A stretch of DNA of 64,000 nucleotides from positions 47,233-111,232 of the forward strand of contig JAUVZL010000001.1 of assembly GCA_030602565.1 (NCBI GenBank), in the 5' to 3' direction. Origin of the DNA: Candidatus Stahliibacteriota bacterium. Its GTDB lineage: Bacteria; Hydrothermota; Tepidihabitantia; SM23-42. The notes under the pieces are model-generated. The model was not told the DNA's origin. It worked only from the letters and a program-made list of their open reading frames with translations, and did no database searches. A program made the position numbers and the translations under genes. Of the stretch, positions 6,136-31,005 are shown piece after piece (positions within the stretch are counted from its first letter, which is position 1; the number at the start of each line of letters is the position of its first letter).

Positions 6136-6191
6136 ATTTAAGGAGTAGTTGCCCAATTTATTGGGCTATTGGAGAGAAATGAGGAGGTTTG

Positions 6192-6905
6192 ATGCCCATA
6201 CATTTAAAAGCGAACAAAGGCGATTATGCGCCCACTGTGCTTCTGGTTGGAGATCCAGGTAGGGCTGATAGAATAAGTAAGCTATTAGATAAAACAAGAC
6301 TGGTCAATGACAACCGGGGGCTGTTTGGGTATACTGGACAATACAAAAGTAAAGAAGTATCGGTACAAACTACTGGCATGGGATGTCCTTCAGCTGCGAT
6401 CGTGGTTGAAGAACTGATCCAGCTCGATGTCAAAAGATTCATTAGGATAGGCACATGCGGTGGTATAGGTGAACACATAAGACCATTGGACATCGTTGCC
6501 GCGGTAGCTGCTTCACCTTTTGACGGAACAACTCAGACTTATTTGAGACATGAACCACTTGCACCCTATGCGACTTTCGAGATATTGAAGGCGGCACACG
6601 ATATTTCCAGGGCTCTGGACATTAAGGTATGTTTCAGCGGTGTTGCAAGTGTTGATGTGTTCTATAACCCCTTTCCTGATTATGTCGATAATCTCAGGAA
6701 AAAGGGTGTCGTTGCGGTGGAGATGGAGACTAGTCTAATATACTATCTGGCAAACCGTAGCAATAAAGAAGCAGCTTCTTTCTTACTTGTTTCGGATATA
6801 GTCGGTGGCGATGAACACTTCACTAAATACGTTACTGAGCAAGAACTGGCTGAAGGGATGGAAACTCTGATTAATTTTGTGCTTGAGGTTTTCATTAATT
6901 TGTAG
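6192..6905 (+). CDS. deoD: purine nucleoside phosphorylase, DeoD-type (PNP/UDP family 1)
   Basis: The N-terminus HLKANKGDYAPTVLLVGDPGRADRI...GYTGQYKSKEVSVQTTGMGCPSAAIVVEEL aligns with E. coli DeoD. A GAGGAGG SD is present. A perfect palindrome GCCCAATTTATTGGGC at 6151-6166 lies just upstream. Confidence 0.8.
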   Translation: MPIHLKANKGDYAPTVLLVGDPGRADRISKLLDKTRLVNDNRGLFGYTGQYKSKEVSVQTTGMGCPSAAIVVEELIQLDVKRFIRIGTCGGIGEHIRPLDIVAAVAASPFDGTTQTYLRHEPLAPYATFEILKAAHDISRALDIKVCFSGVASVDVFYNPFPDYVDNLRKKGVVAVEMETSLIYYLANRSNKEAASFLLVSDIVGGDEHFTKYVTEQELAEGMETLINFVLEVFINL

Positions 6906-9176: not shown

Positions 9177-11540
9177 TTACTTAATTACCAGTAGCTTATC
9201 TATTTGCTTTAGTCCTCCTGCGTCAATCTCAACGAAATACACACCGCAAGAAAGGTCAATAGGTTTATCGATTTTGTGAGTGCCCTGGGATATATTTCTA
9301 TTTATAAGGGCATCAACAACCCGGCCAGTTAGATCAAATATCCTTACGTTAAGGTCTGTCGTCGAACCGACGTATATTTCAAGATGTAGTCTATTCTTTG
9401 TAATCGTACTGAAATTACTGATTCTCATACCTGGCACATAAGTGTATGTGTTTTCTTCGATACCTGGATTGAAGCTAAGATCTCCAGTTACCGCATAAGC
9501 GAATCCCATTGGACCATTCGGAATACTCTGACCAATGACCGTAATATACCAAAGTCCGGTTTGCGGACTATTGATACGGGCACACTCTTCGACGTTTATA
9601 TTATCCCAGGTTGAAGGGTTTGCAGAGGACTCTCCACCACTGTAGATATTGCCTCGATAATAAGTACCACTCGGTGCAGTTAGTTCAAGATGCAAATTAT
9701 TGACGAGTGTGGAGGGTGCGCCAGATGATGCGGCAGTATCAGTCCAAGCCATGCAAACACGCAGCGGTATTGCCGAATTAACAACGAAGGAATCAGTAAT
9801 TGACATGCCTGTGGTGACACCAATAGTATCATCGATAAGGATCAAATTCCTGGAATTCCCAGCAAAGAATAGAACGCTATCAACATCAATTCTTCCCCAG
9901 CCTACATTAAAACTGGGGATCGTATAACCAACGTTTGGGTCAGCGGAAACCATTGTCATAGCCCTTAGCAAAGCAGCACTCTGATATTTGATTGAATCAG
10001 AGGTATTTGCTGTACCAGATGGGTAAAAACCGGCAAGCAGGTATTGTCGGATTAAACCAATTGCACCATTTGTCGCAGGCGTTGCCATGCTTGTTCCAGA
10101 CATGCCTTTATAGCCTGACGTGCCGGCGCCATTCGCTGACCAGAGTCCAGCCCATAGATTTGTGCCATCACCAGGTGCCATTATATTCGGTTTAATACGA
10201 TTATCCAAAGTAGGACCACGGCTGGAAAACGTGGCTATCTGATTTGAATTAGTGCTATTGAGCATCGCACCCACGGTCAGGATATTTTTTGCAATACCTG
10301 GGTTTCTAATTGTCCTACTCGAATATTCATTACCCGCTGCATAGAGATTGAGAAAATCAGGGTTTGCATAGATATAGGCATCAGTCGAAGCATCCTGTAG
10401 CAAATATGTACCACTTGAATTACCCCAACCCCAAGAGCCTGAATGCTGCAGAATTGTATAGGGTAGTCCACGACCAAGATGTATGGTATCATACATCGCT
10501 GTTAAGTTCTGGGGAACAACGAGTCCACCACTAGCATTGCCGATGTCGACGAAATAAATGCGCGCTTTCTTTGCCATCCCATCATAGGGCTGCGAACCCT
10601 GAGTAGTATCGTCACCAGCGACTGTACAGTTTACATGTGTACCATGATATCCACCTACATCACCAAAGGCCGCGCCTTGATAGTTCTTATATCCAACAAC
10701 TTTACGATGATTTGGATACACGCCCGTTCCTGTAATAGGATAGGAGGGATCATAAAACTGCTGGTGATTAGTAGTGATCCCAGTATCCGTGGTGTTGAGC
10801 ACGACACCATTACCGACCACACCATTATACCATACTTGCCGAGCGCCTGGGTTTGATGGGATACTTGAACGCCAGCCAGTTTGAGTGACCCATTGGCAAT
10901 TCTGATTTGCCACAGTAGGTTCAGACCACATCTGGATCCAGATTATGCCTGATATATTAGCGATGGTGCTGAGTTGTTCAGCATCGAGTATGATTTCCAT
11001 TGTTTTGCAAATAGGATGGTCGATTATCTCCGTAACTTCAAAGCCCATTTCCCTAATCTGCTGCGCTATGTCATTAATATCTTCATTTGGGAAAACCTGT
11101 ACTGTGGTATGGATAATACCTTTTTGATTCAGGATGTCCTTTTCGAGTTTGTACGCAGGTTGATATATCCCGGTCCATTGCACAAATGATTTTGTCTTAG
11201 CCTGTATGATCTGTTCAGCATCAACACGAACAATAAGCGCATAGTGCGGAGCATATCCAAGGATCTCAATTCCATCTGCTTTTAGTTCTTCAGTCCAGGT
11301 TTCATATATCGGACCAGTCATTTGGACCAGATAATACCCGCTTTTTTGGTAGCCACTAATCGTAAGAGCAGTCAGTAGCTGAGGTTCGCCATTACGCGTG
11401 TCAAATTCAATACCATTGGAAAACGAGATGATAGTAGCATTATCATCAGGGAATACCTCACGCGGCATTACCACACCGTGTTTGTGTATATTGGTAGCGC
11501 CCAAACATGTTATGACCAATAATAACGATACCAATTTCAT
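9177..11540 (-). CDS. secreted subtilisin-like serine protease (peptidase S8) with N-terminal propeptide and C-terminal T9SS-type sorting domain
   Basis: The Asp/His/Ser triad motifs DTGI, HGTHVNCTVAG and GTSMATP are present. The C-terminal ~75 aa (VRIFDLTGRVV...GVYFVEI...KLLVIK) matches the T9SS CTD pattern. The signal peptide reads MKLVSLLLVITCLG. The start is set at the second ATG (11540), preceded by GGAGG, rather than 11555. Confidence 0.85.
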   Translation of the reverse strand: MKLVSLLLVITCLGATNIHKHGVVMPREVFPDDNATIISFSNGIEFDTRNGEPQLLTALTISGYQKSGYYLVQMTGPIYETWTEELKADGIEILGYAPHYALIVRVDAEQIIQAKTKSFVQWTGIYQPAYKLEKDILNQKGIIHTTVQVFPNEDINDIAQQIREMGFEVTEIIDHPICKTMEIILDAEQLSTIANISGIIWIQMWSEPTVANQNCQWVTQTGWRSSIPSNPGARQVWYNGVVGNGVVLNTTDTGITTNHQQFYDPSYPITGTGVYPNHRKVVGYKNYQGAAFGDVGGYHGTHVNCTVAGDDTTQGSQPYDGMAKKARIYFVDIGNASGGLVVPQNLTAMYDTIHLGRGLPYTILQHSGSWGWGNSSGTYLLQDASTDAYIYANPDFLNLYAAGNEYSSRTIRNPGIAKNILTVGAMLNSTNSNQIATFSSRGPTLDNRIKPNIMAPGDGTNLWAGLWSANGAGTSGYKGMSGTSMATPATNGAIGLIRQYLLAGFYPSGTANTSDSIKYQSAALLRAMTMVSADPNVGYTIPSFNVGWGRIDVDSVLFFAGNSRNLILIDDTIGVTTGMSITDSFVVNSAIPLRVCMAWTDTAASSGAPSTLVNNLHLELTAPSGTYYRGNIYSGGESSANPSTWDNINVEECARINSPQTGLWYITVIGQSIPNGPMGFAYAVTGDLSFNPGIEENTYTYVPGMRISNFSTITKNRLHLEIYVGSTTDLNVRIFDLTGRVVDALINRNISQGTHKIDKPIDLSCGVYFVEIDAGGLKQIDKLLVIK

Positions 11541-11572
11541 ATGACCTCCTTTCATATATTTAAGTCTCTGAT

Positions 11573-15345: not shown

Positions 15346-18300
15346 TTAACGTACTAATACGATCTGTCTGGTCAGTGTTCTATTGTCTGCATTCAACTGA
15401 CAAAAGTATACACCATTAGGTACTACCCTTTCAAGCTCATCAGTACCGTTCCATGACACCGATGTCACAGATTCATTCATATCATACGGATCAACGTTGA
15501 ATACTCTAATAAGACGTCCAGTTACATCATAGATTTTCAGCGAAGCATTCGTTGTATTCAGTATTTGGCATCTAATAATAGTGTTTTGTTTAAATGGATT
15601 CGGATAAATACTGAGCTGGGTGACGATATCTGATAAACCGTGTTCCAGAACGCCGGTGCCAGTATTATAGAGAACTGTGACATTATTTGAATTGTAGTTT
15701 CCACAAGCAATATCAAGTGCACCATCCAGGTCGTAATCAGCAGACATTATCCCCCAAGGGCTCGTTCCAACAGTATACGTTGCCAAATTACCATACGTTC
15801 CATCACCATTATTCAGTAATACAGCAACAGTATTTGTGCCATTATTGCTGCCGATCAGGTCAATGTCACCATCGCCATCAAAATCACCACCGTGGAGAGC
15901 TCTGGTATTATTGCCTGTTGCGTATCCTGTCGGATTAGAAAAAGTACCGTCTCCATTATTAAGTATCACAGCGATATCATTGCCGCTATAATTAGCGGTC
16001 GCAAAGTCAACATAATTATCGCCATTAAAATCATTACCATAAACTGCGGTTGGATTATCACCAACTGCATAATTTGTGATTTCCGGGAAATTACCATCAC
16101 CATCATTCGACAATATTGAGATATTATCATTCCCAGCATTGGTTACACCAAGGTCCAGATCACCATCATTATCAACATCTTTAATAGCTACACCTCGTGC
16201 CCAGGTCCCGGCAGTATACGTGTACGGACCTGAATAACTACCATTACCATTATTTAACATTACCCGGACATTTGTTCCAGAACCCCATCCATCAGTCATT
16301 ACAAGATCAATGTCATTGTCAGCATCAATATCACCGCCAGCGAGATTCTGTCCAAGAATTGCTGGTGCATAAGTAGCAAATACCGTGAAAACGCCACTGC
16401 CATTATTTTTCAAAATAACCAGATGCGATGTGCCTGGCTGATTATGTGCTGAGGCGAGGTCTATGTCGCCATCACTGTCAAAGTCGGCACCAAATAGAGC
16501 GATCGGGTCACCCTCAATCGAAGTGTATACTGGTGCGGCAAAAGTCCCGTCACCATTATTAAGCAGAACGACAACACTGTTAGGATTAGACGTTGCCGCA
16601 ATATCGATATCCCAGTCACCATCAAAATCACCGGCAAACAGACCACGCGGTTGATTGCCTGCAGTAAAGTTGAGAGGATTTTCAAATGTTCCATCTGATT
16701 GGGTCGAAACAGCAGCTGTAAAATCCCAGATAAATCCATCCAGATAAGGCCCGATCAATGACTGTATATCCTTAGACAATATCGCAGTGACGACTTCACC
16801 ATCTATAAAATCGATATCAGGATCAAGACTGACTGTCGATGTGCCGCTACTATAAATAATAGTACCTGTGTGGATACCGGTCTGCACACCCTGCACTGTA
16901 AAGGTTGAGTTATTCAGGGTCAAACTGTCCACCTCAAGGCTGAAAGTGGCATTGATATCTGTTGATTGCGGAACATCTAATTGGTACTGAACAGGATCTG
17001 TCGATGTAACATTCAGTGCTGCCTCGTTAAGCAATACAGACATACTGTCAACGCTATAATCACCGGTCACTATGTCCATGTCACGGTCATTGTCAAAATC
17101 GCCTGATAAGAGACACGACGGGCTGCTGCCTGTAATAAAGTGGGTTGCGGTAGCGAAACCACCATTGCCATTTCCCAGCAAAATAGAGACTGTGTTTGCA
17201 TTCACATTAGAGACCGCAAGATCATGATTCCCATCAGCATCATGATCAGTAGCATATATTCCACTCGGACCATCACCCGCTGCAAAATGCACGGCTGATC
17301 CGAATGTACCGTCACCATTGCCGAGCAACCGCGACACATTATCCGAATCGAAGTTTGCGGTCGCGATATCAAGATCGCCGTCACCATTGAAATCTGCACT
17401 ATAGACACCATGAGGATTCGTACCAACAGAAAAGTTGTCAACCGCACCAAACCCGCCAGTGCCATCCCCTAGAAGGATAGAAATGTTGTTCGTTGTGCTG
17501 TTCGTGGTTACGACATCGAGATACCCATCATTATTAAAGTCTCCACACACAATTCTGAGCGGTGACCCACCAACTGTATAGTTCATCGGACCACTGAACG
17601 TGCCGTTGCCATCTCCTATGAGTATGGAAACCGTCCCCGAATTGCGATTAACTACAGCAATATCAAGGAGACCATCACAATTGAAATCCCCGCAACAGAT
17701 ACCCTGTGGTGCGATATCTGCAGCATACGAACTCCCAACCGTGAACGTGCCGTCCCCATTACCGAGTAGTATCGATACATCGTTGCTGCCTTCATTGGTG
17801 ACTGCAAGATCAAGCCATGGATCCACGTTGAAATTGAAATTACTCGTGCATATACCTGTCGGTCCAGATCCTACCGGGTAATTAACTGCGGTTGCAAACG
17901 TGCCATCTCCGTTACCGATTAGCACTGATACTTCATCTGAATAGTAATTGGCAAAGGCAACATCCAGGTTATCATCCCGATAAAAATCTCCTGTGACCCC
18001 ATCCAACGGACCGTCCCCAAGCATATACTGGTCACTGTGCGTAAACAATCCAGAACCGCTATCAACACGGCAAACGAACTGCCAGATAAAACCCTCAAGG
18101 GAATCACCAGAAGGAGTCCTGATATCCTTTGTAAGAACTGCGGTCACTATCTCTCCACAATGAAAAGTGCTATCAGGATCGATCGTGACAAAGCGCGCTG
18201 TGGTGTCATATGTAATCGTACTTGATATAAATCCCGTGAACTTTCCATGGATCTGCGTAGTGTTTACAGTAAACGATACAGGATCCATGTCGAGGTTGAA

Positions 18301-19242
18301 CATCGCTGAAGCACTTACCGTATCATAAATATTCTGCTCGTTCATTGCCGGGATCGTGAGCAGGACCACAGGAAAATCAGCCGTCGCACCCGGACCTCCA
18401 TAAGCACCCATATCGTTGCGCGATCCATCAGGGTCATTGTACTGTGCTGCAGGATTTCCTGAATCAATACACGGTGAGCCAGTCTGTAAATGGAAGTCAT
18501 TGGGTGGATCCACATAGAGTGGATCAGCTGAAATACTCCCGGTACCAGGTGAGCAATTCTGATAATTGGTAGCATTGTTCCATACATTGTTATAGGTAAG
18601 CACCGGGGGTGTCCCCACTGCATAAACGCCATATAGAGTACTTGACGTAACTATATTATTCATTACCGTTGCACCATAACCACCGCCATCATTAATACCA
18701 ATCCTATTTCCAACCACGGTATTATTGATAACTACAGGGTCAGCACTTATTACTATTCCATCAAAATTCTGATTAACTACAACATTATTGTGAATATACG
18801 CATTAGATTGATTCCAGGTAGCTATGCCAAAGTCATTGCCTTCAACTCGATTATTACTAATGTCTGGCTTGGCACCACTATTACAGAAAATCCCAGCACC
18901 ACCTGGCATACCGCCACCAGATACTGCACCGGTAACAGTAAATCCCTGGAACTTGGTATCATTGTCAATATCATTGCCTGAAGCAAACACAACGTCACCG
19001 CTATTGCCACCACCATCAATAATTGATAATCCTTCGCCAGTCCCTCGTACAACAACATCTGCTTTCAAGGTTATTTCTTCATTATATGTACCTGGTGCAA
19101 CGACAACAATGTCACCGCCATTGGCAGCATCAATGCCCTGCTGTATAGTCGGATAATCTTGCGGTACCCTTATTATTATCGCATGGAGCAATAGAGGGAA
19201 AAACGCAAAGGAAACAATTAGTATTGTAAAAAATTTCTTCAT
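15346..19242 (-). CDS. giant secreted protein (1298 aa): N-terminal right-handed beta-helix region, ~12 FG-GAP/VCBS-type repeats, C-terminal T9SS-type sorting domain
   Basis: A signal peptide is present. There are repeated GDFNGDGxxDI / GDFDxDGDxD motifs. The C-terminus reads YPNPFKQNTIIRCQ...IYDVTGRLIRVF...GVYFCQL...IVLVR. Confidence 0.85.
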   Translation of the reverse strand: MKKFFTILIVSFAFFPLLLHAIIIRVPQDYPTIQQGIDAANGGDIVVVAPGTYNEEITLKADVVVRGTGEGLSIIDGGGNSGDVVFASGNDIDNDTKFQGFTVTGAVSGGGMPGGAGIFCNSGAKPDISNNRVEGNDFGIATWNQSNAYIHNNVVVNQNFDGIVISADPVVINNTVVGNRIGINDGGGYGATVMNNIVTSSTLYGVYAVGTPPVLTYNNVWNNATNYQNCSPGTGSISADPLYVDPPNDFHLQTGSPCIDSGNPAAQYNDPDGSRNDMGAYGGPGATADFPVVLLTIPAMNEQNIYDTVSASAMFNLDMDPVSFTVNTTQIHGKFTGFISSTITYDTTARFVTIDPDSTFHCGEIVTAVLTKDIRTPSGDSLEGFIWQFVCRVDSGSGLFTHSDQYMLGDGPLDGVTGDFYRDDNLDVAFANYYSDEVSVLIGNGDGTFATAVNYPVGSGPTGICTSNFNFNVDPWLDLAVTNEGSNDVSILLGNGDGTFTVGSSYAADIAPQGICCGDFNCDGLLDIAVVNRNSGTVSILIGDGNGTFSGPMNYTVGGSPLRIVCGDFNNDGYLDVVTTNSTTNNISILLGDGTGGFGAVDNFSVGTNPHGVYSADFNGDGDLDIATANFDSDNVSRLLGNGDGTFGSAVHFAAGDGPSGIYATDHDADGNHDLAVSNVNANTVSILLGNGNGGFATATHFITGSSPSCLLSGDFDNDRDMDIVTGDYSVDSMSVLLNEAALNVTSTDPVQYQLDVPQSTDINATFSLEVDSLTLNNSTFTVQGVQTGIHTGTIIYSSGTSTVSLDPDIDFIDGEVVTAILSKDIQSLIGPYLDGFIWDFTAAVSTQSDGTFENPLNFTAGNQPRGLFAGDFDGDWDIDIAATSNPNSVVVLLNNGDGTFAAPVYTSIEGDPIALFGADFDSDGDIDLASAHNQPGTSHLVILKNNGSGVFTVFATYAPAILGQNLAGGDIDADNDIDLVMTDGWGSGTNVRVMLNNGNGSYSGPYTYTAGTWARGVAIKDVDNDGDLDLGVTNAGNDNISILSNDGDGNFPEITNYAVGDNPTAVYGNDFNGDNYVDFATANYSGNDIAVILNNGDGTFSNPTGYATGNNTRALHGGDFDGDGDIDLIGSNNGTNTVAVLLNNGDGTYGNLATYTVGTSPWGIMSADYDLDGALDIACGNYNSNNVTVLYNTGTGVLEHGLSDIVTQLSIYPNPFKQNTIIRCQILNTTNASLKIYDVTGRLIRVFNVDPYDMNESVTSVSWNGTDELERVVPNGVYFCQLNADNRTLTRQIVLVR

Positions 19243-20451: not shown

Positions 20452-21270
20452 TTAAGGGTACGGGGTAAAAGTAATAGAGAATTGATGGGCATTTGAGAAT
20501 TCTGTATATACGAAAGAATATCCGATTTCATAGCTTTCTACCAGGACAATGATACCACCTGAAAGATTTAGGTCAGAAATATGAAAGCCCTGGTATGTTT
20601 CACTGATAAGATCTTCAGGTTTTATGTACCTTGTTCCTACAAGTAGCTTAACATAGTGGTATTTGTACAACAACCCTGAATTTATCTCTAAATGCGGCAT
20701 TTTTGATTCAATGAAGAATGTAATATCCCTGGGTAAAGCTAGTTTTAAACCAAGTGCACTTGTAAACGGAATTGTGGTGTTTTCTCCAAATTCTTTACCT
20801 AAATTATCAATCTTGGCACCGATTGCGATATTGCCGAAATCAATGTATGAGCTGATTGCCAGACATACACCATACAGGGACTGGGTATCAACTTTTTCTC
20901 CAAAGGTCTTGATTGATAGTCCAAACAGACCGATCCTTCGTCCGAAAATTACACATATATCATAAGGCGTGAATTCATTAGTTGGCACGCCAAATTGATC
21001 ATAGCCCTGAATCCCGCCATAATTCAGGTAGCTGATGCCAATCACATTGTCTTTGTAAGTAGCGCCCAAAGAAAAATGGTTTGTCGAAGACAACCATCTC
21101 GATAAAGTAAAGTTAATCTGTGTTGAACCAATAATAGCAGGGTTATGAAATGCTGATAAGCCTTCATTAATCATTATTGATGCGCTGCCTAAACCTTGAG
21201 ACATAACGCCTGGGGATAGTCGCAAGAAGTAGGCAGAGCTGATTGAAACAAGGAATATTAATAATGTCAT
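20452..21270 (-). CDS. putative outer-membrane beta-barrel protein (possibly T9SS-associated PorP/SprF- or PorQ-like)
   Basis: The signal peptide MTLLIFLVSISSAYF starts at an internal Met. Amphipathic beta-strands alternate with Gly/aromatic-rich stretches, and the C-terminus is aromatic. The listed 21351 start would overlap the upstream gene. Confidence 0.45.
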   Translation of the reverse strand: MTLLIFLVSISSAYFLRLSPGVMSQGLGSASIMINEGLSAFHNPAIIGSTQINFTLSRWLSSTNHFSLGATYKDNVIGISYLNYGGIQGYDQFGVPTNEFTPYDICVIFGRRIGLFGLSIKTFGEKVDTQSLYGVCLAISSYIDFGNIAIGAKIDNLGKEFGENTTIPFTSALGLKLALPRDITFFIESKMPHLEINSGLLYKYHYVKLLVGTRYIKPEDLISETYQGFHISDLNLSGGIIVLVESYEIGYSFVYTEFSNAHQFSITFTPYP

Positions 21271-21295
21271 AGATATGATTGGTTCTCTGTATCCC

Positions 21296-22534
21296 TCATT
21301 GAACGATTGCCATTTTTGACTTATACCTGTAGGAATTAAAACGGGTTTCAACTACGACATACACAAAATAGATACCTACAGGTAGCAAACCCCGTCTCAG
21401 TAGAAATCCATCAGGATTATAAGTCATGTCTTCATATACCCGTTGACCAAGGATATTTGTCAGTGTTAGTGTCGCTTTTTCAAAATCATCAACCCGGGGG
21501 AATTCTATGTGTGCTTGATTCTGCATAGGGTTGGGCCAAATTTTAACTATCTTTTCAGGTGTGGTATGGAAATCTCCATCATTTATATCAACGAACACAG
21601 GTAAATGATCTGATGCGAAATATAAGGCATCAGCAATATTGGCTGGTACAACACTATTATACCCTTGATTAATCGAGATATCAAAATGATTGCCATCATT
21701 ACCGACTATCGTATATGAGTGATTCGATATGAACAAACCAGCACTATCAAGAAAACTCTGCGAGCACATAACCATATCAAATCGGTCGTCCAGACCACCT
21801 GCTGCACCACCGTCTTCAAGCTGCTCGTACCTTGTGGATTGAGTATGTATCGAGGCGAAATCGGCATTGTCATGCCAGTACCCTGAAGCATTCAGAGGAT
21901 CAAATAAACGACCGTTGTTGTTTGAAAAATCTCCAACAAGGTGTTGGTAAGCCGACTCTCGACTGTAATAGATATTAAAATCACCAAGCACTAAGAAATA
22001 CGAACCTTGGGCAAACTGACTGAGATATTCTCGCAACACCTTGGCTTCTTCAAAACGAATTGCCTCATTAGCAGAACCCTGTGAAGCTTTAAAATGGAGA
22101 GAGAACAAGCAGCATTCCTGTTGGCTCTCAGAAGACCTCAATCGATACTGTGCAATGTCCCGGTTTGTAGTTGACAGATACTGGTCATACAGGACCTCAA
22201 CCTTATCCGGTATGTAGAAAATAGCATTGTCAGTACCCGGACCATCATGAAAAGTGCCTGCATCGTAAATATCTTCTTGATAATTCATTATTGAATCCAG
22301 AAACAGATTGACACCTCCTTGACTCTGCATTTCCTGAACAATGAGGACGTCTGGCTGTACATACTCAACAACTGCACGTAAGTGATCAAGCCTTTGCATA
22401 CCCATAGCCTCTGGAAAGTTGAGGATATTATAAGACACAATTCTAATTGTTCCGCCGGACAAAAAACAGAACCCATAGACAATGACCAGTAATATCCGTT
22501 TGTATCCTTGTTCAGAATTCTGTTTCACTATCAT
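21296..22534 (-). CDS. endonuclease/exonuclease/phosphatase (EEP) family secreted nuclease-like protein with C-terminal T9SS-type sorting domain
   Basis: The N-terminal EEP core reads RIVSYNILNF...DVLIVQE. The C-terminus IWPNPMQNQAHIEF...LTNILGQRVYE...GIYFVYVV is CTD-like. Confidence 0.7.
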   Translation of the reverse strand: MIVKQNSEQGYKRILLVIVYGFCFLSGGTIRIVSYNILNFPEAMGMQRLDHLRAVVEYVQPDVLIVQEMQSQGGVNLFLDSIMNYQEDIYDAGTFHDGPGTDNAIFYIPDKVEVLYDQYLSTTNRDIAQYRLRSSESQQECCLFSLHFKASQGSANEAIRFEEAKVLREYLSQFAQGSYFLVLGDFNIYYSRESAYQHLVGDFSNNNGRLFDPLNASGYWHDNADFASIHTQSTRYEQLEDGGAAGGLDDRFDMVMCSQSFLDSAGLFISNHSYTIVGNDGNHFDISINQGYNSVVPANIADALYFASDHLPVFVDINDGDFHTTPEKIVKIWPNPMQNQAHIEFPRVDDFEKATLTLTNILGQRVYEDMTYNPDGFLLRRGLLPVGIYFVYVVVETRFNSYRYKSKMAIVQ

Positions 22535-24039
22535 TAACGGACAATGTCAGTAATTCTACTGTGAAGCGCCCCTTGTATTGGCGAGTGCTTTTTCACGTAT
22601 TCAGCAATGATGTTGCGCAGATAAAGGGATGTATCATTAATATCGGTCGCCTTCTTAAAGACAATGTACTCTCCCCCACCTGCAGCAAGGTATGAATTAG
22701 TTACAACTCTATATTCCTTAGTCAGATCGAGCTGTTCACCGTCTTCAGTGACAACTTCGATCATTCTTTGACCAATTGGTTTTTCTGAATCGTATTTCAA
22801 TTTGATACCAGATATCTGGAAAATAGCATGATGACCATTAAAGCCGATCTCAAGTACTTCGAGCAACACTTTGCCCGACATGTTCATGACTACCGCGGTA
22901 TTAGAAAGTCCATCGATATTATAGCAGTCACGATATGTTATTTCACCCTTTGGCATATTTGCTCTGATGCCACCAGAATTATGTATTGCAATATCAGCAG
23001 TGAGGTATTCTCGCATCGCATCAGTAATCAAGTTCCCTATGGTAGTTTCTTCGAAACCAGCCCTGGTCAATTCATCATTAGAATAACCGATTACTTCATC
23101 AAACCCTTTTTCAGTAACTGCCTCCCATTTTTTCACGATGTTTAGCATGTGCATATCACTCTCGATTTCTTCGCTCAAGAGATCAATCAGGGTTCCTTTA
23201 TAGCCGGCAATTCTCTTTGTCTCTGGGGCCACTAAAAGATCAAGAAAACCGATACTGCTGAGGTGACTGTAGGATTGACAGATTATCGTATGGTTGATTG
23301 AATCTTCGTATGGCGTCTGTAATGCAGAAGAGCTATGCGAACCGAATATTATATCAATGCCAAGTACGGAGCTGGCAACACGTTTATCGTGTTTCAATCC
23401 AATACCAGTTAAAGCGATTATTAAATCGACATCTTTAGTCTGCAGGATTTCCACATATTTCCTTGCTGTTGTTATTTCATCCAATACATCATGATTCTTG
23501 AATTTTTCTGGTGTTGTCATACCTTTCATATAATGGGTAAGTATGCTGAAAATGCCAATCTTCATTCCGTTACGTTCGATTATTGTAAAAGGTGTCAGGT
23601 AATCTACATTTTCGCGCGTTTTCTCATAAACAATATTACTACCCAAAAATATGGCATCAACACCTCCGACGAATTCCTTGAACACCTCAACGCCCATGTC
23701 ATAGTCGTGATTACCAGGTGCTACTACATCGTAACCACAATAATTGAAATATTCGACTACTGATTTGCCTTTGGAAAACTCACCGAGCGGCGAACCCATA
23801 AACATATCACCGCTGTCAAAAAGAAGAAATCCATAACCCAGGGTGTCGGCTTCTTGCTTTTTTGATTTGATGAAATGAGCTGCGGCAGCCGCATTGCCAA
23901 GGAGTGGTGGGAAATAGGGGTTCATCCACCAAGCAACACTCGGTGACAGCGCCCCTTCTATATCGTTTGTGTAAAGGATGTAGATGTGATCAGAGCTATT
24001 CGCGGCAGACAGGGTGAAGAGTAGAAAAAGACTAAACAA
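22534..24039 (-). CDS. bifunctional metallophosphatase/5'-nucleotidase (UshA-like), secreted
   Basis: ILYTNDIEGA, GNHDYDMG and GDMFMGSP metallophosphoesterase motifs are present, followed by a C-terminal 5'-nucleotidase substrate-binding domain. A signal peptide is present. Confidence 0.85.
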   Translation of the reverse strand: MFSLFLLFTLSAANSSDHIYILYTNDIEGALSPSVAWWMNPYFPPLLGNAAAAAHFIKSKKQEADTLGYGFLLFDSGDMFMGSPLGEFSKGKSVVEYFNYCGYDVVAPGNHDYDMGVEVFKEFVGGVDAIFLGSNIVYEKTRENVDYLTPFTIIERNGMKIGIFSILTHYMKGMTTPEKFKNHDVLDEITTARKYVEILQTKDVDLIIALTGIGLKHDKRVASSVLGIDIIFGSHSSSALQTPYEDSINHTIICQSYSHLSSIGFLDLLVAPETKRIAGYKGTLIDLLSEEIESDMHMLNIVKKWEAVTEKGFDEVIGYSNDELTRAGFEETTIGNLITDAMREYLTADIAIHNSGGIRANMPKGEITYRDCYNIDGLSNTAVVMNMSGKVLLEVLEIGFNGHHAIFQISGIKLKYDSEKPIGQRMIEVVTEDGEQLDLTKEYRVVTNSYLAAGGGEYIVFKKATDINDTSLYLRNIIAEYVKKHSPIQGALHSRITDIVR

Positions 24040-24044
24040 TGGAA

Positions 24045-25127
24045 TTATAAGGTAAAGCCAAGAGACATTAGAATTGTACTGGTTGATTCATCAAATTGCA
24101 GGTTGCTGAGGTTATTTAATCTATCAAAGTCACTACTAGTATAATCGCGTTTTGCATAACTGTAACCAAGGTTAAAATGTAACCTTTCTATTTGGAGTCC
24201 GAACCCAATCGACAAAACTGTTGTCCAGACAGCAGTCTGTTCGTAGTTAGGAAAAACACAAAACCCGTAGCGTATCGCGTACTTGCTGGCGAATTTATGT
24301 TCAATTCCTGCTTTGTAGATATTTATCGATGTTAGCCATGTTTCACGGCTAAATTCACCAAAGAACCTCGTTGGGATACGAGCCGCAGGTTGGTAATAGC
24401 ACCCAATTGTGTGTGTTGCTGGGTAATCAAAACTCGGACTATTTTCCTTTTCCTTAAGGGTATGTTTAGTCAGGTATACATATGCAAGAGCAAAATGCTG
24501 GTTGGCAAAGACAAGAATGCCCACGCTCGTAGCTTTGCCTTCACACGTGTTTTCTTGCACGTTAACTGAGTCGGGCAAATTCGGTCCGGTTATTGTGATA
24601 TTGGAATGTGTCTTACCCAATATGAAATGTTCTTTTATGCCGACACTGAAAAGTCTGCAGGAAAAACACACTACTGGTGCCAAGGAATAGATCGAACCGT
24701 CGTATTCATGAATTTCTGTTTTCGTCAACTGATAAAAATCATCGCGGTATTCGCGCCGAAAATAGTAGTCAAAATCCCACATCGGTGAGTACTGGAAACC
24801 GATCCTCAAACCTTTGAGAGGAAACACAGCCAAGCCTGCAGCGAGGTCGATGCTGGCATGCGTGCTGTTAGTAATAGTGGAAATACCCATATTATTACCG
24901 TATGAATCATAAACTCTCAGACCTCTGCGTTCGTTGGTTAACGTGAAAGCCGGTGTGATTGACACATATAGTCTGTCTATCAAGCCGAGACAGGCAGGAT
25001 TTGAACCAGTCTTTAAGACAGAAGTCACGCCACCTAAGCTAAGAGAAGGGGCATCAGTGTAATAAAAGCGATCGCCCTGGCTGTTCACCCCGGGTAAGGT
25101 TAGATAGAAAAGGTATATTATGATCAT
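24045..25127 (-). CDS. putative outer-membrane beta-barrel protein (360 aa)
   Basis: A signal peptide is present. The sequence is rich in alternating aromatic/Gly beta-strand segments. It is the first gene of the nucleotidase operon. Confidence 0.45.
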   Translation of the reverse strand: MIIIYLFYLTLPGVNSQGDRFYYTDAPSLSLGGVTSVLKTGSNPACLGLIDRLYVSITPAFTLTNERRGLRVYDSYGNNMGISTITNSTHASIDLAAGLAVFPLKGLRIGFQYSPMWDFDYYFRREYRDDFYQLTKTEIHEYDGSIYSLAPVVCFSCRLFSVGIKEHFILGKTHSNITITGPNLPDSVNVQENTCEGKATSVGILVFANQHFALAYVYLTKHTLKEKENSPSFDYPATHTIGCYYQPAARIPTRFFGEFSRETWLTSINIYKAGIEHKFASKYAIRYGFCVFPNYEQTAVWTTVLSIGFGLQIERLHFNLGYSYAKRDYTSSDFDRLNNLSNLQFDESTSTILMSLGFTL

Positions 25128-25158: not shown

Positions 25159-25704
25159 TTACGGTACAAAAACTGCAGCCGCGATAACTGTTGTCCACAA
25201 GCCATTCTTATTGCCGATCGCGGTTTGAGTAATAGCCGTTGTTTTAACGATTTCTCTGGAAATCCTCCAGATTTCTTTTCTCTCGTCATAACTTGTGTCC
25301 GGATTAAAGGGGACACCAAGAGTCGTCGCTAACATTTGCGCCGCCAGATCTTCGGCTTCATCTGCTACTTTGATTTCACTTTCTCCATACGAATGATATT
25401 CTGACAAATAACCGTATTGTGTACGGTCTTTGGGTATTGCGACGCCTATTGATGCAGCTATGAGACGATGTGGTTCATTAGTACTGCACTCAGCCATCAC
25501 TGTGTACGTTATTTCACCCGCTGATAAAGAACAAATGCCCTTGCTCTTGGATAGAATTTTTGCCTTGGGAGGTAAGATACTTGACACCCTCACAATATTG
25601 AAATGGGCAATACCAGCATCACGTAATGCAGCCTCAAAGCTAGCCAGTTTTGCTTTATGTCGGCCAACGCCTTTAGTAAAAAAGAGATTCTTTGGTACTA
25701 ACAT
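25159..25704 (-). CDS. pdaD: pyruvoyl-dependent arginine decarboxylase
   Basis: The N-terminus MLVPKNLFFTKGVGRHKAKLASFEAALRDAGIAHFNIVRVSSILPP matches PdaD, including the SS self-cleavage site. Length is 181 aa. Confidence 0.8.
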   Translation of the reverse strand: MLVPKNLFFTKGVGRHKAKLASFEAALRDAGIAHFNIVRVSSILPPKAKILSKSKGICSLSAGEITYTVMAECSTNEPHRLIAASIGVAIPKDRTQYGYLSEYHSYGESEIKVADEAEDLAAQMLATTLGVPFNPDTSYDERKEIWRISREIVKTTAITQTAIGNKNGLWTTVIAAAVFVP

Positions 25705-25716
25705 TTTATCCTCTTA

Positions 25717-25789
25717 TGGAGCAGACCAGAGTCGAACTGGCGGCCTTCTCGCTGCGAACGAGACGCTCTCCCAACTGAGCTACTGCCCC
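25717..25789 (-). tRNA. tRNA-Ala (anticodon CGC)
   Basis: The reverse complement folds as a cloverleaf GGGGCAG-TA-GCTC-AGTTGGGA-GAGC-G-TCTCG-TTCGCAG-CGAGA-AGGCC-GCCAG-TTCGACT-CTGGT-CTGCTCC-A. G3:U70 is the Ala identity pair and the discriminator is A73. CCA is not encoded. Confidence 0.85.
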
Positions 25790-25838
25790 TGATTTTTCGA
25801 TTATAAGGGAAAAGATTGCGAAGTCAAGACATGAACCA

Positions 25839-29703: not shown

Positions 29704-31005
29704 ATGCTCGAAAAAATATTTAAATTACAAGAACATGGGACCAATGTAAAGACAGAGGTCATAGCTGGACTTACAACCTTTATGACAATGGCATATATAA
29801 TAGTTGTAAATCCTGCAATACTTGAGGCTGCTGGTATACCAAAAGGTCCATCCATGGTCGCTACAATTCTCTCAGCCTTTTTTGGAACCCTTCTTATGGG
29901 AGTTTATGCAAAGCGTCCATTTGCCATTGCTCCATATATGGGTGAGAATGCATTTATTGCATATACTGTCGTCAAGATTCTTGGTTATTCCTGGCAAACA
30001 GCACTCGGTGCAATATTTATTGGTGGGGTTCTCTTTACCATTATAACTATCTTAAAACTCAGGTCGTGGCTTGCCAATGCAATTCCTAAAAGCCTGAAAT
30101 ACTCATTTGCCGTTGGAATTGGATTGTTTCTTGCATTCATAGGATTAAATGATGGCGGTATAGTACAAGTAGGCGTGCCTGGTGCTCCAGTGAGGATAGG
30201 AGATATCAGAAGTCAGGCAGTGCTTCTTGCCATCGCAGGTATTCTGATTATAGGCATTCTTATGGTGAAAAAGGTAAAAGGTTCAATCCTGATAGGAATT
30301 CTTGGAACTACCTTTTTAGCCTTTATTTTTGGTATTGCTAAACCTCCAAGCCAATTGGTAAGTCTTCCTCCTTCTCTCTCCCCCATTTTTTTGAAATTGG
30401 ATATTGTAGGCGCATTATCATGGGGGTTTTTTGCAGTAATACTTACAGTTTTTATAATGGATTTTGTGGACACGATGGGCACTCTTATTGGTGTATCTGC
30501 TCGGGCAGGCTTTCTTGATGAAAACGGGAATCTACCTGAAATTAAGAAGCCAATGCTTGCAGATGCTCTTGCCACTATGTTTGGAGCATTGGTTGGAACA
30601 ACTACAGCAGGAACATTTATTGAATCTGCCGCTGGTGTTGAAGAAGGAGGTAGAACAGGTCTTACTGCTGTGGTAACTGCGTTACTATTTCTGATATGCC
30701 TATTTTTTGCTCCTCTTTTTACATCAATTCCTCCACAGGCTTATGGGGCTGCACTTGTTATAGTGGGAATGCTGATGATTTCTGTAGTTACAAAAATTGA
30801 TTTTAAGGATTTCACAGAGTTAATCCCTAGTTTCTTTGTAATAATACTAATGAGCTTCACTTTTAATTTGGGTATTGGGATAACCGCAGGATTTGTGCTT
30901 TATCCTGTATTTAAACTCGTTACTGGAAGGTGGAAAGAGATACATCCTGGGTTATGGGTTCTTTTTGTTCTTTCGGTTCTTTTTTACATATTCTACCCAT
31001 ACTAA
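29704..31005 (+). CDS. NCS2-family nucleobase permease (AzgA/PbuG-type adenine/guanine/hypoxanthine transporter)
   Basis: The N-terminus KLQEHGTNVKTEVIAGLTTFMTMAYIIVVNPAIL is typical of the AzgA subfamily. The protein has 12-14 TM segments. The SD is strong. Confidence 0.85.
   Translation: MLEKIFKLQEHGTNVKTEVIAGLTTFMTMAYIIVVNPAILEAAGIPKGPSMVATILSAFFGTLLMGVYAKRPFAIAPYMGENAFIAYTVVKILGYSWQTALGAIFIGGVLFTIITILKLRSWLANAIPKSLKYSFAVGIGLFLAFIGLNDGGIVQVGVPGAPVRIGDIRSQAVLLAIAGILIIGILMVKKVKGSILIGILGTTFLAFIFGIAKPPSQLVSLPPSLSPIFLKLDIVGALSWGFFAVILTVFIMDFVDTMGTLIGVSARAGFLDENGNLPEIKKPMLADALATMFGALVGTTTAGTFIESAAGVEEGGRTGLTAVVTALLFLICLFFAPLFTSIPPQAYGAALVIVGMLMISVVTKIDFKDFTELIPSFFVIILMSFTFNLGIGITAGFVLYPVFKLVTGRWKEIHPGLWVLFVLSVLFYIFYPY

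Follow-up and report, generated by a model that had tools for sequence, protein, structure and literature searches.

Two barrel–enzyme gene pairs form a reduced envelope cassette of WOR-3 and TA06 bacteria with a possible role in nucleic-acid processing

Vibrio cholerae utilises extracellular DNA by means of the secreted nucleases Xds and Dns and the periplasmic proteins UshA and CpdB (PMC4714964). In Bacteroides, the DNA-utilisation locus ddbABCDEF includes DdbD, a DUF5689 protein proposed to bind DNA (PMC12478041). Secretion by the type IX system (T9SS) employs outer-membrane carriers, namely PorV (type A cargo), PorP/SprF-like proteins (type B cargo) and the PorQ–PorZ pair (PMC10994853, PMC9143113, PMC10947112). 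A further barrel, BamG, has the FadL fold and belongs to the BAM complex of Bacteroidota; it anchors BamH, a lipoprotein of the cell surface, and is essential in F. johnsoniae (PMC12611786). In another report (PMC11729948), the membrane nuclease MnuA of Mycoplasma bovis works with a 5'-nucleotidase in nucleotide salvage. Here we describe a locus that shares features with all of these. It lies in a 64,000-nucleotide stretch of DNA from a Candidatus Stahliibacteriota bacterium (contig JAUVZL010000001.1, positions 47,233 to 111,232), which we refer to as the window. The locus consists of four consecutive minus-strand open reading frames (ORFs) at 20452–25127, which the ORF listing of the window contains just where an earlier note, made from the sequence alone, had placed them. 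In reading order, they encode a predicted outer-membrane protein (OMP1), a protein of the 5'-nucleotidase family (NT5), a predicted exported phosphodiesterase of the endonuclease/exonuclease/phosphatase fold (EEP) with a T9SS C-terminal domain (CTD), and a second barrel (OMP2).

We propose, with a probability of roughly 0.55, that these four genes are a reduced envelope cassette of WOR-3 and TA06 that processes nucleic acids or nucleotides outside the cytoplasm and is built from two modules. The earlier note had read the locus as an extracellular nucleic-acid scavenging operon. That reading stands in part: genes for DNA binding and for nucleases are present in relatives of the cassette, but the ligands of NT5 have changed. 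The note's picture of a single four-gene unit has to be given up, as the locus consists of two separable modules, OMP1 followed by NT5 (module A) and a T9SS-domain enzyme followed by OMP2 (module B).

We rate the locus as a variant of known DNA-utilisation and T9SS carrier systems whose outer-membrane parts differ. As in Vibrio, a secreted nuclease and a UshA-family nucleotidase would together convert extracellular DNA to nucleosides and phosphate. The Vibrio genes, in our reading of that report, are not described as one locus, and nucleotides are thought to enter via general porins; there are no dedicated barrels and no T9SS, whereas the window has a single cassette in which each enzyme is paired with a barrel. 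Like the Bacteroidales ddb locus, the cassette would unite secreted nucleases and outer-membrane components in one place, and DUF5689 recurs in a cargo protein of the TA06 sister cassette, and there alone. The Ddb system, however, uses the TonB-dependent transporter DdbC and lipoprotein partners, whereas the window locus has FadL-superfamily barrels and T9SS export; neither a TonB-dependent transporter nor a DUF5689 domain was found in the window cluster genes scanned, and the window cluster has no lipoproteins. In the T9SS carriers a FadL-superfamily barrel likewise recognises the cargo CTD, with surface anchoring for type B cargo and for PorQ–PorZ, and OMP2 is homologous to PorV and PorQ. 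Dedicated carriers encoded next to their cargo have been described for type B cargo with PorP-like proteins. The window differs in placing a small PorV/PorQ-like barrel of ~270 residues, which scores below the family cut-offs, beside a type A-like cargo. The BamG gene (Fjoh_1412) lies far from that of its partner BamH (Fjoh_0823), whereas OMP1 adjoins a UshA-family gene and is dispensable at the locus. The Mycoplasma pair is similar in joining a surface nuclease to a 5'-nucleotidase, and the MnuA model is weakly matched by 4 of the 16 members of the EEP family; the two Mycoplasma proteins, however, are lipoproteins, and their wall-less bacterium has no outer membrane, barrels or T9SS. The literature searched held no description of the cassette, and none of WOR-3 with a T9SS or with a nuclease together with a nucleotidase.

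The division into two modules is seen most directly among close relatives. The gene order is more than a chance arrangement, judged by its recurrence in 23 WOR-3 species whose barrels are 37–61% identical to those of the window. Among 29 WOR-3 loci (L001–L029), 23 have the order pdaD–OMP1–NT5–EEP–OMP2 and five have EEP–OMP2 without OMP1 and NT5, and OMP2 directly follows EEP in 29 of 29 loci with sequence at that position. The five loci that jointly miss OMP1 and NT5 (L005, L006, L019, L022 and L023) fall into three groups on a rough neighbour-joining tree. One of them, L006, retains a deletion scar in which NT5 codons 446–501 (the last 56) alone remain in front of EEP (L006:7815–7982). Because OMP1 and NT5 are absent together at five loci, they were lost as a pair, and OMP1 is dispensable at this locus. 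Among WOR-3 EEP paralogues, those without this T9SS domain or with another in its place (L030–L032) have no adjoining OMP2. The window comes from a candidate division WOR-3 bacterium: every named close homologue stems from a WOR-3 metagenome-assembled genome, and an identical OMP1 protein is also present on a Logan contig.

Both pairs extend well beyond the close clade. We found the same order in the nearest outgroups of OMP1 and in 26 metagenome loci: a T9SS cargo, a small PorV-like barrel, an outer-membrane protein with HhH domains (HhH OMP), an OMP1-like protein and NT5. The metagenome loci were retrieved by the OMP1 motif alone, with a scan based on a narrow six-sequence OMP1 alignment, and for this reason the presence of NT5 next to OMP1 is independent evidence of the pairing. 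An OMP1-like gene is followed by NT5 in ~22 distant cassettes, in which OMP1 is ~23–26% identical to the window protein where the two were compared directly; in the shared-order loci with downstream sequence, NT5 comes next or is separated by one small nuclease gene. This does not hold for L117, a very weak OMP1 relative (22–23% identity) with no NT5 in ~1 kb downstream, or for L084–L086, three more distant BamG-like loci that stand alone. Named bearers of the cassette belong to WOR-3 lineages and TA06, and the labels Cloacimonadota, Elusimicrobiota or Gemmatimonadota appear on a few relatives. In five loci (L093, L094, L095, L101 and L107) the cassette extends further, to a T9SS-domain PHP phosphoesterase and then an orthologue of OMP2. 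The shared wider order therefore makes the window locus a reduced cassette: besides OMP1, NT5 and OMP2 it has a T9SS enzyme, here EEP instead of PHP. The CTD of EEP compares with the CTDs of the PHP enzymes of sister cassettes at z up to 17.8 and with other window cargo at z ~2, which fits a swap of the catalytic domain before a conserved sorting domain and barrel.

The additional genes of the fuller cassettes indirectly support a nucleic-acid substrate. The HhH OMP is a protein of 797–844 residues that has ComEA/EEPD1-like HhH domains at its N-terminus and a large C-terminal part with an aromatic end as in outer-membrane barrels (L101:5471–7933, L091:7362–9896, L082:2579–4999 and ~20 more loci), and it always lies between the small PorV-like barrel and the OMP1-like gene. 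The T9SS cargo of the TA06 cassette combines OB-fold and DUF5689 domains, and its match to the ExeM/NucH model has an E-value of 5.8e-27. In L082 (6121–7545) and L088 (6074–7464), a PLD/NucT-like nuclease of ~180 residues separates the OMP1-like gene from a truncated NT5, which is followed by an ABC transporter, and L082 has a pyrimidine-nucleoside phosphorylase in addition. These DNA-binding and nuclease genes are in line with the nucleic-acid reading of the earlier note. In Ignavibacteriota and Calditrichota (L041, L043, L072 and L076), EEP homologues sit in another conserved cluster, beside a 495-residue uncharacterised protein, a TonB-dependent-receptor-like protein, a true PorV_fam protein and a ~361-residue NHL-repeat protein; the T9SS cargo next to these EEP genes is LTD-rich or BLAST-similar to the DUF5689 cargo of TA06, and in L076 a 1644-residue T9SS cargo with three LTD domains follows. 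We also observed a RecJ-like DHH/DHHA1 protein just downstream of full cassettes (L101:12908–14515, L107:10941–12548, L087:9227–10834 and L091:18523–20211), and Dtd is near the cassette in TA06 as it is in the window. The proximity of these two genes may be residual synteny or a functional link.

EEP has the fold and the catalytic residues (N, E, H, D/N, D, D-H) of the DNase I-like EEP superfamily. Its match to Exo_endo_phos is 23.9 bits, against a cut-off of 24.5, and the residues N36, E68, H147, D185, N187, D249–D253, D309 and H310 are invariant in 16 homologues of 43–67% identity; their absence would have counted against the earlier note's reading, and all are kept. An insertion between the GDFN and DDRFD motifs carries further invariant residues specific to the family (H221, H230, Q232, S233 and R235). 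The AlphaFold2 (AF2) model of EEP has a pLDDT of 79, with well-defined secondary structure at residues 29–185 and 253–319 and lower confidence across the insertion. The model matches DNase1L3 (21.0), Nocturnin (20.9) and neutral sphingomyelinase (20.8) equally well, so the fold does not reveal the substrate. At the level of sequence, the family has weak hidden Markov model (HMM) matches to nuclease-type EEP models only, namely ExeM/NucH (13 of 16 members), Xth (1 of 16) and the MnuA model mentioned above. The window protein itself scores 30.6 bits against the ExeM/NucH/Xds-type model, whose cut-off is 300 and of which only the C-terminal part is matched, and a Pfam scan of it found neither an LTD nor an OB-fold accessory domain. 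The sorting domain lies just under threshold in the window EEP (PF18962, 25.8 against 27; TIGR04183, 22.8 against 23). It is matched in 15 of 16 homologues, at best with an E-value of 8.8e-15, and its model matches solved T9SS sorting domains, which confirms the T9SS-type CTD of the earlier note and assigns it to type A.

OMP2 is a divergent relative of the T9SS carriers. It scores 40.6 bits against PorV_fam (NF033709, cut-off 90 bits), compared with 20.5 for OMP1, and aligns with true PorV_fam proteins at an hhalign probability of 97%. The barrel that follows the PHP enzymes in sister cassettes aligns with OMP2 at 99.3% (E 1.2e-20). The small barrel upstream in the full cassette was also considered as the orthologue of OMP2 and rejected, as it reached only 16.6% in hhalign. 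An N-terminal motif is common to OMP1 and OMP2, which are distant paralogues. A Pfam scan at E up to 1 gave no family match for either protein, hence no Tsx and no PorP/SprF; neither protein matched the FadL/TodX family Toluene_X (PF03349), and profile searches of the PDB with both returned nothing meaningful. The earlier note had offered a T9SS PorP/PorQ-like partner or a nucleoside channel as candidates for the barrels, and what remains of this is the relationship of OMP2 to PorV and PorQ.

The AF2 model of OMP1 (pLDDT 82, pTM 0.78) has 14 strands and two short N-terminal helices, a predicted FadL/BamG-type fold for which FadL is as good a match as BamG. The earlier note had named a match to fatty-acid porins as grounds for rejecting its reading. 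We do not take the FadL-like fold in this sense because PorV and BamG share it. An exhaustive profile search with OMP1 yielded 369 cluster representatives; among 60 wider relatives, the BamG model was matched by 47 and PorV_fam by 31. OMP1 itself matches the BamG model (NF053685) at 26.9 bits and over residues 89–205 only, with a cut-off of 250.

NT5 has the two-domain architecture of the UshA family, an N-terminal metallophosphatase domain (Metallophos, PF00149, 21.8 bits against a cut-off of 21.5) and 5_nucleotid_C (PF02872, 7.5e-41). Its best solved relative is 3ivd (5.5e-46), and it aligns over its full length with 3ivd and 2z1a. It is the most conserved protein of the cluster (64–79% identity across the clade) and shares 49–51% identity with its TA06 and L087 counterparts. 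The metal site, however, has been remodelled. All 23 window-clade loci have NDIEG, LTG(I/T)G and GSHS(A/S)(S/T) (NDIEG, LTGIG and GSHSS in the window), whereas every distant full-length cassette NT5 that covers those positions has the canonical NDIHG, L(T/N/D)H(I/V/A/S)G and GxHSH(T/S). The changed residues are 28, 211 and 237, now E, G and S/A, fixed in 23 of 23 clade loci. We take the two-metal ligands of UshA to be D41, H43, D84, N116, H217, H252 and Q/H254, of which H43, H217 and Q/H254 are the equivalents of the altered residues. The catalytic His-Asp motif GNH(D/E)xD is kept, with GNHDYD conserved across the clade. The earlier description of NT5 as a signal-peptide 5'-nucleotidase/metallophosphatase thus holds for its architecture and its short signal peptide, but three canonical histidine metal ligands are missing. 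Because the clade has lost these ligands, the activity of NT5 is uncertain, and the clade protein may work with other metals or serve chiefly as a subunit for binding. In L082 and L088, NT5 is cut to its N-terminal domain and has degenerate motifs (TNNAFG, GTNELS), yet it is kept in the cassette. The series from canonical through triple-substituted to degenerate NT5 suggests that the partnership with OMP1 is structural and is kept where catalysis changes. We further observed a motif, WWMNPYFPPxxGNA, just after the first metal-binding motif (residues ~33–50; window 23900–23960). It is kept in the cassette NT5s examined, still recognisable in the degenerate L082 protein and absent from the solved relative 3ivd, and it may be a contact surface.

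We picture the two modules as follows. In module B, Sec would take EEP across the inner membrane, and the T9SS, by way of the CTD of EEP, across the outer one. OMP2 is proposed to be the cognate carrier or anchor of EEP, by analogy with the T9SS carriers (PMC10994853, PMC10947112, PMC9143113), and would probably hold EEP on the cell surface, where the enzyme would cut extracellular DNA or RNA. In module A, OMP1 would work physically with NT5; it may dock NT5, by analogy with BamG–BamH (PMC12611786), or else pass nucleotides to it. NT5 would then remove phosphate, and the nucleosides and phosphate would be imported by transporters encoded elsewhere.

Several findings weigh against this proposal. 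The ComEA-like HhH protein was not found in the window or, at this locus, in the close WOR-3 loci. In L087, the T9SS-domain PHP enzyme has no OMP2-like gene after it. The matches of OMP2 to PorV_fam (2.3e-10) and PorQ (1.3e-9) both remain below the curated cut-off. Classically, FadL-type barrels transport hydrophobic compounds and not nucleotides. Neither a T9SS domain nor a lipobox is present in NT5, which bears on its placement relative to OMP1, and the protein is without three of the seven canonical metal ligands, so that the two-metal set is incomplete.

Other explanations of the locus account for some of these data. EEP and NT5 could be broad-specificity exported phosphoesterases that serve general organophosphate or phosphate scavenging and have no particular tie to nucleic acids. 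Such enzymes would agree with the equal fold matches of EEP to Nocturnin and other phosphatases, with a Bacteroides mannosyl-6-phosphatase among the PDB sequence matches of EEP, and with the many phosphoesters, including UDP-sugars and NAD, that UshA-family enzymes accept, types which the NCBIfam matches of NT5 span. We nevertheless consider this explanation unlikely, given that sister cassettes repeatedly hold HhH, OB-fold, DUF5689 and LTD domains, a NucT-like nuclease and a nucleoside phosphorylase, and that the weak HMM matches of the EEP family are confined to nuclease-type models. The same neighbours bear on the scavenging of lipids or other hydrophobic compounds, in which EEP would be a sphingomyelinase or phospholipase C and the FadL-type barrels would import its products. 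We give this hardly any credence: the EEP family matched no lipid-type NCBIfam model, there are no lipid-metabolism genes among the cassette neighbours with listed families, whose context is nucleic-acid related, and OMP2 groups with the PorV/PorQ protein carriers. DNA uptake for natural transformation, rather than feeding, would suit the ComEA-like HhH OMP of the fuller cassettes and the relationship of the Bacteroides ddb locus to the Riemerella transformation system (PMC12478041). It appears very unlikely here, as the HhH protein is missing from the window-clade locus and the nucleotidase, nucleoside phosphorylase and nuclease genes point to breakdown.

A different kind of objection concerns OMP1 alone, which might be the WOR-3 BamG, a general outer-membrane assembly subunit whose place beside NT5 has no functional meaning. 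The prevalence of BamG-model matches among its wider relatives, the BamG-like genes reported across FCB phyla (PMC12611786) and the more distant OMP1 relatives that stand alone among housekeeping genes are all compatible with this. The score of OMP1 is, however, far below the BamG cut-off, FadL matches it equally well, and its adjacency to NT5 persists across very deep divergence. Moreover, OMP1 was lost together with NT5 at the five loci described above, whereas BamG is essential in F. johnsoniae (PMC12611786). On this evidence we regard a general assembly role as distinctly improbable. We also entertain, as a possible but doubtful extension of our own proposal, that the OMP1–NT5 and T9SS enzyme–OMP2 pairs represent a class of outer-membrane complexes in WOR-3 and TA06 not described before, that FadL-superfamily barrels act in them as dedicated partners of nucleic-acid enzymes and that, with the HhH OMP, they form a TonB-independent machine for DNA capture and degradation.

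The boundaries of the genes and their immediate context are as follows (Table 1). The longest ORF for OMP2 spans 20452–21351 and would encode 299 residues. Since the homologues have only 264–276 residues and cover 90% of that ORF, the longer form is unlikely to be real, and the true start is probably the ATG at 21270, giving 272 residues. The apparent overlap of EEP and OMP2 is therefore an artefact of choosing the longest ORF, and a gap of 25 nt separates the EEP stop from the OMP2 start. The NT5 stop overlaps the EEP start (TAATG), and a 5-nt gap lies between the OMP1 stop and the TTG start of NT5. Of the tight packing with start/stop overlaps in the earlier note, the packing is confirmed, and the NT5/EEP junction is the sole true overlap. 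The leaders of OMP1, NT5 and OMP2 (at 25127, 24039 and 21270) are very short, ~13–16 hydrophobic residues without a basic N-terminal region; ordinary signal peptides are present in some orthologues of these proteins, clearly so for NT5.

Upstream, a promoter-like site that matches the consensus at 11 of 12 positions immediately precedes a tRNA-Ala labelled with a CGC anticodon; pdaD, identified by a PvlArgDC match at 6.4e-60, starts within 13 nt after the tRNA, and no minus-strand terminator is predicted between pdaD and OMP1. This layout suggests one transcript that starts with the tRNA and continues through pdaD into the cluster, and the promoter-like site, tRNA-Ala and pdaD may thus be co-transcribed with it. 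An Rfam scan found two tRNAs only and no riboswitch or leader near the cluster. The pdaD/tRNA-Ala context is syntenic only in the close WOR-3 clade, and for this reason we leave pdaD out of the system. The earlier note had called on a purine nucleoside phosphorylase (PNP), a purine permease, pdaD and the tRNA for support. All of them exist, but they add little because none was seen beside distant cassettes with listed flanks. The PNP (6189–6905) and permease (29704–31005) genes are on the strand opposite to the cluster, 5–14 kb away among housekeeping genes, and lend the scavenging reading weak support. The window also encodes an S8 subtilase with a T9SS-type C-terminus (9177–11555; Por_Secre_tail 1.4e-06) and, adjoining the cluster, a 1298-residue repeat-rich protein (15346–19242) whose C-terminus aligns by eye with those of T9SS cargo.

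Table 1. Features of the cassette and its upstream context, in window coordinates
Feature	Coordinates	Strand	Length	Description
OMP1	24045..25127	-	360 aa	Outer-membrane barrel, FadL/BamG-like predicted fold, short N-terminal hydrophobic leader
NT5	22534..24039	-	501 aa, TTG start	UshA/5'-nucleotidase family, two domains, signal peptide
EEP	21296..22534	-	412 aa	Predicted exported phosphodiesterase of the endonuclease/exonuclease/phosphatase fold with T9SS C-terminal domain
EEP catalytic domain	21575..22447	-	~residues 30-320	From alignment of homologues and AF2 model
EEP T9SS type A C-terminal sorting domain	21299..21541	-	residues 332-412	TIGR04183 and PF18962
OMP2	20452..21270	-	~272 aa	Barrel, divergent PorV/PorQ-family member
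Promoter-like site	25800-25827	-		Context only, outside conserved cassette
tRNA-Ala	25717-25789	-		Context only, outside conserved cassette
pdaD	25159-25704	-		Context only, outside conserved cassette

The locus extends the idea of possible cognate carrier barrels for T9SS cargo and that of FadL-fold barrels as potential protein partners rather than lipid channels. The exchange of PHP for EEP before a conserved barrel offers a natural experiment on carrier–cargo recognition, and the canonical, triple-substituted and degenerate forms of NT5 provide a tractable case of enzyme remodelling inside a conserved complex. If the more doubtful reading of a DNA capture and degradation machine were true, the cassette would parallel Sus-like or Ddb loci in function while being made from entirely different parts. 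OMP1 would then display a nucleotidase that has neither a T9SS signal nor a lipid anchor, or would be a FadL-type channel for a hydrophilic substrate, and the NT5 of the window clade would have turned into a subunit that is non-catalytic or binds other metals. The uncultured phyla WOR-3 and TA06 are known mainly from sediments and hydrothermal systems. Extracellular DNA in such habitats can amount to a sizeable store of phosphorus, nitrogen and carbon, and a conserved cassette for its use would give these bacteria a concrete ecological role.

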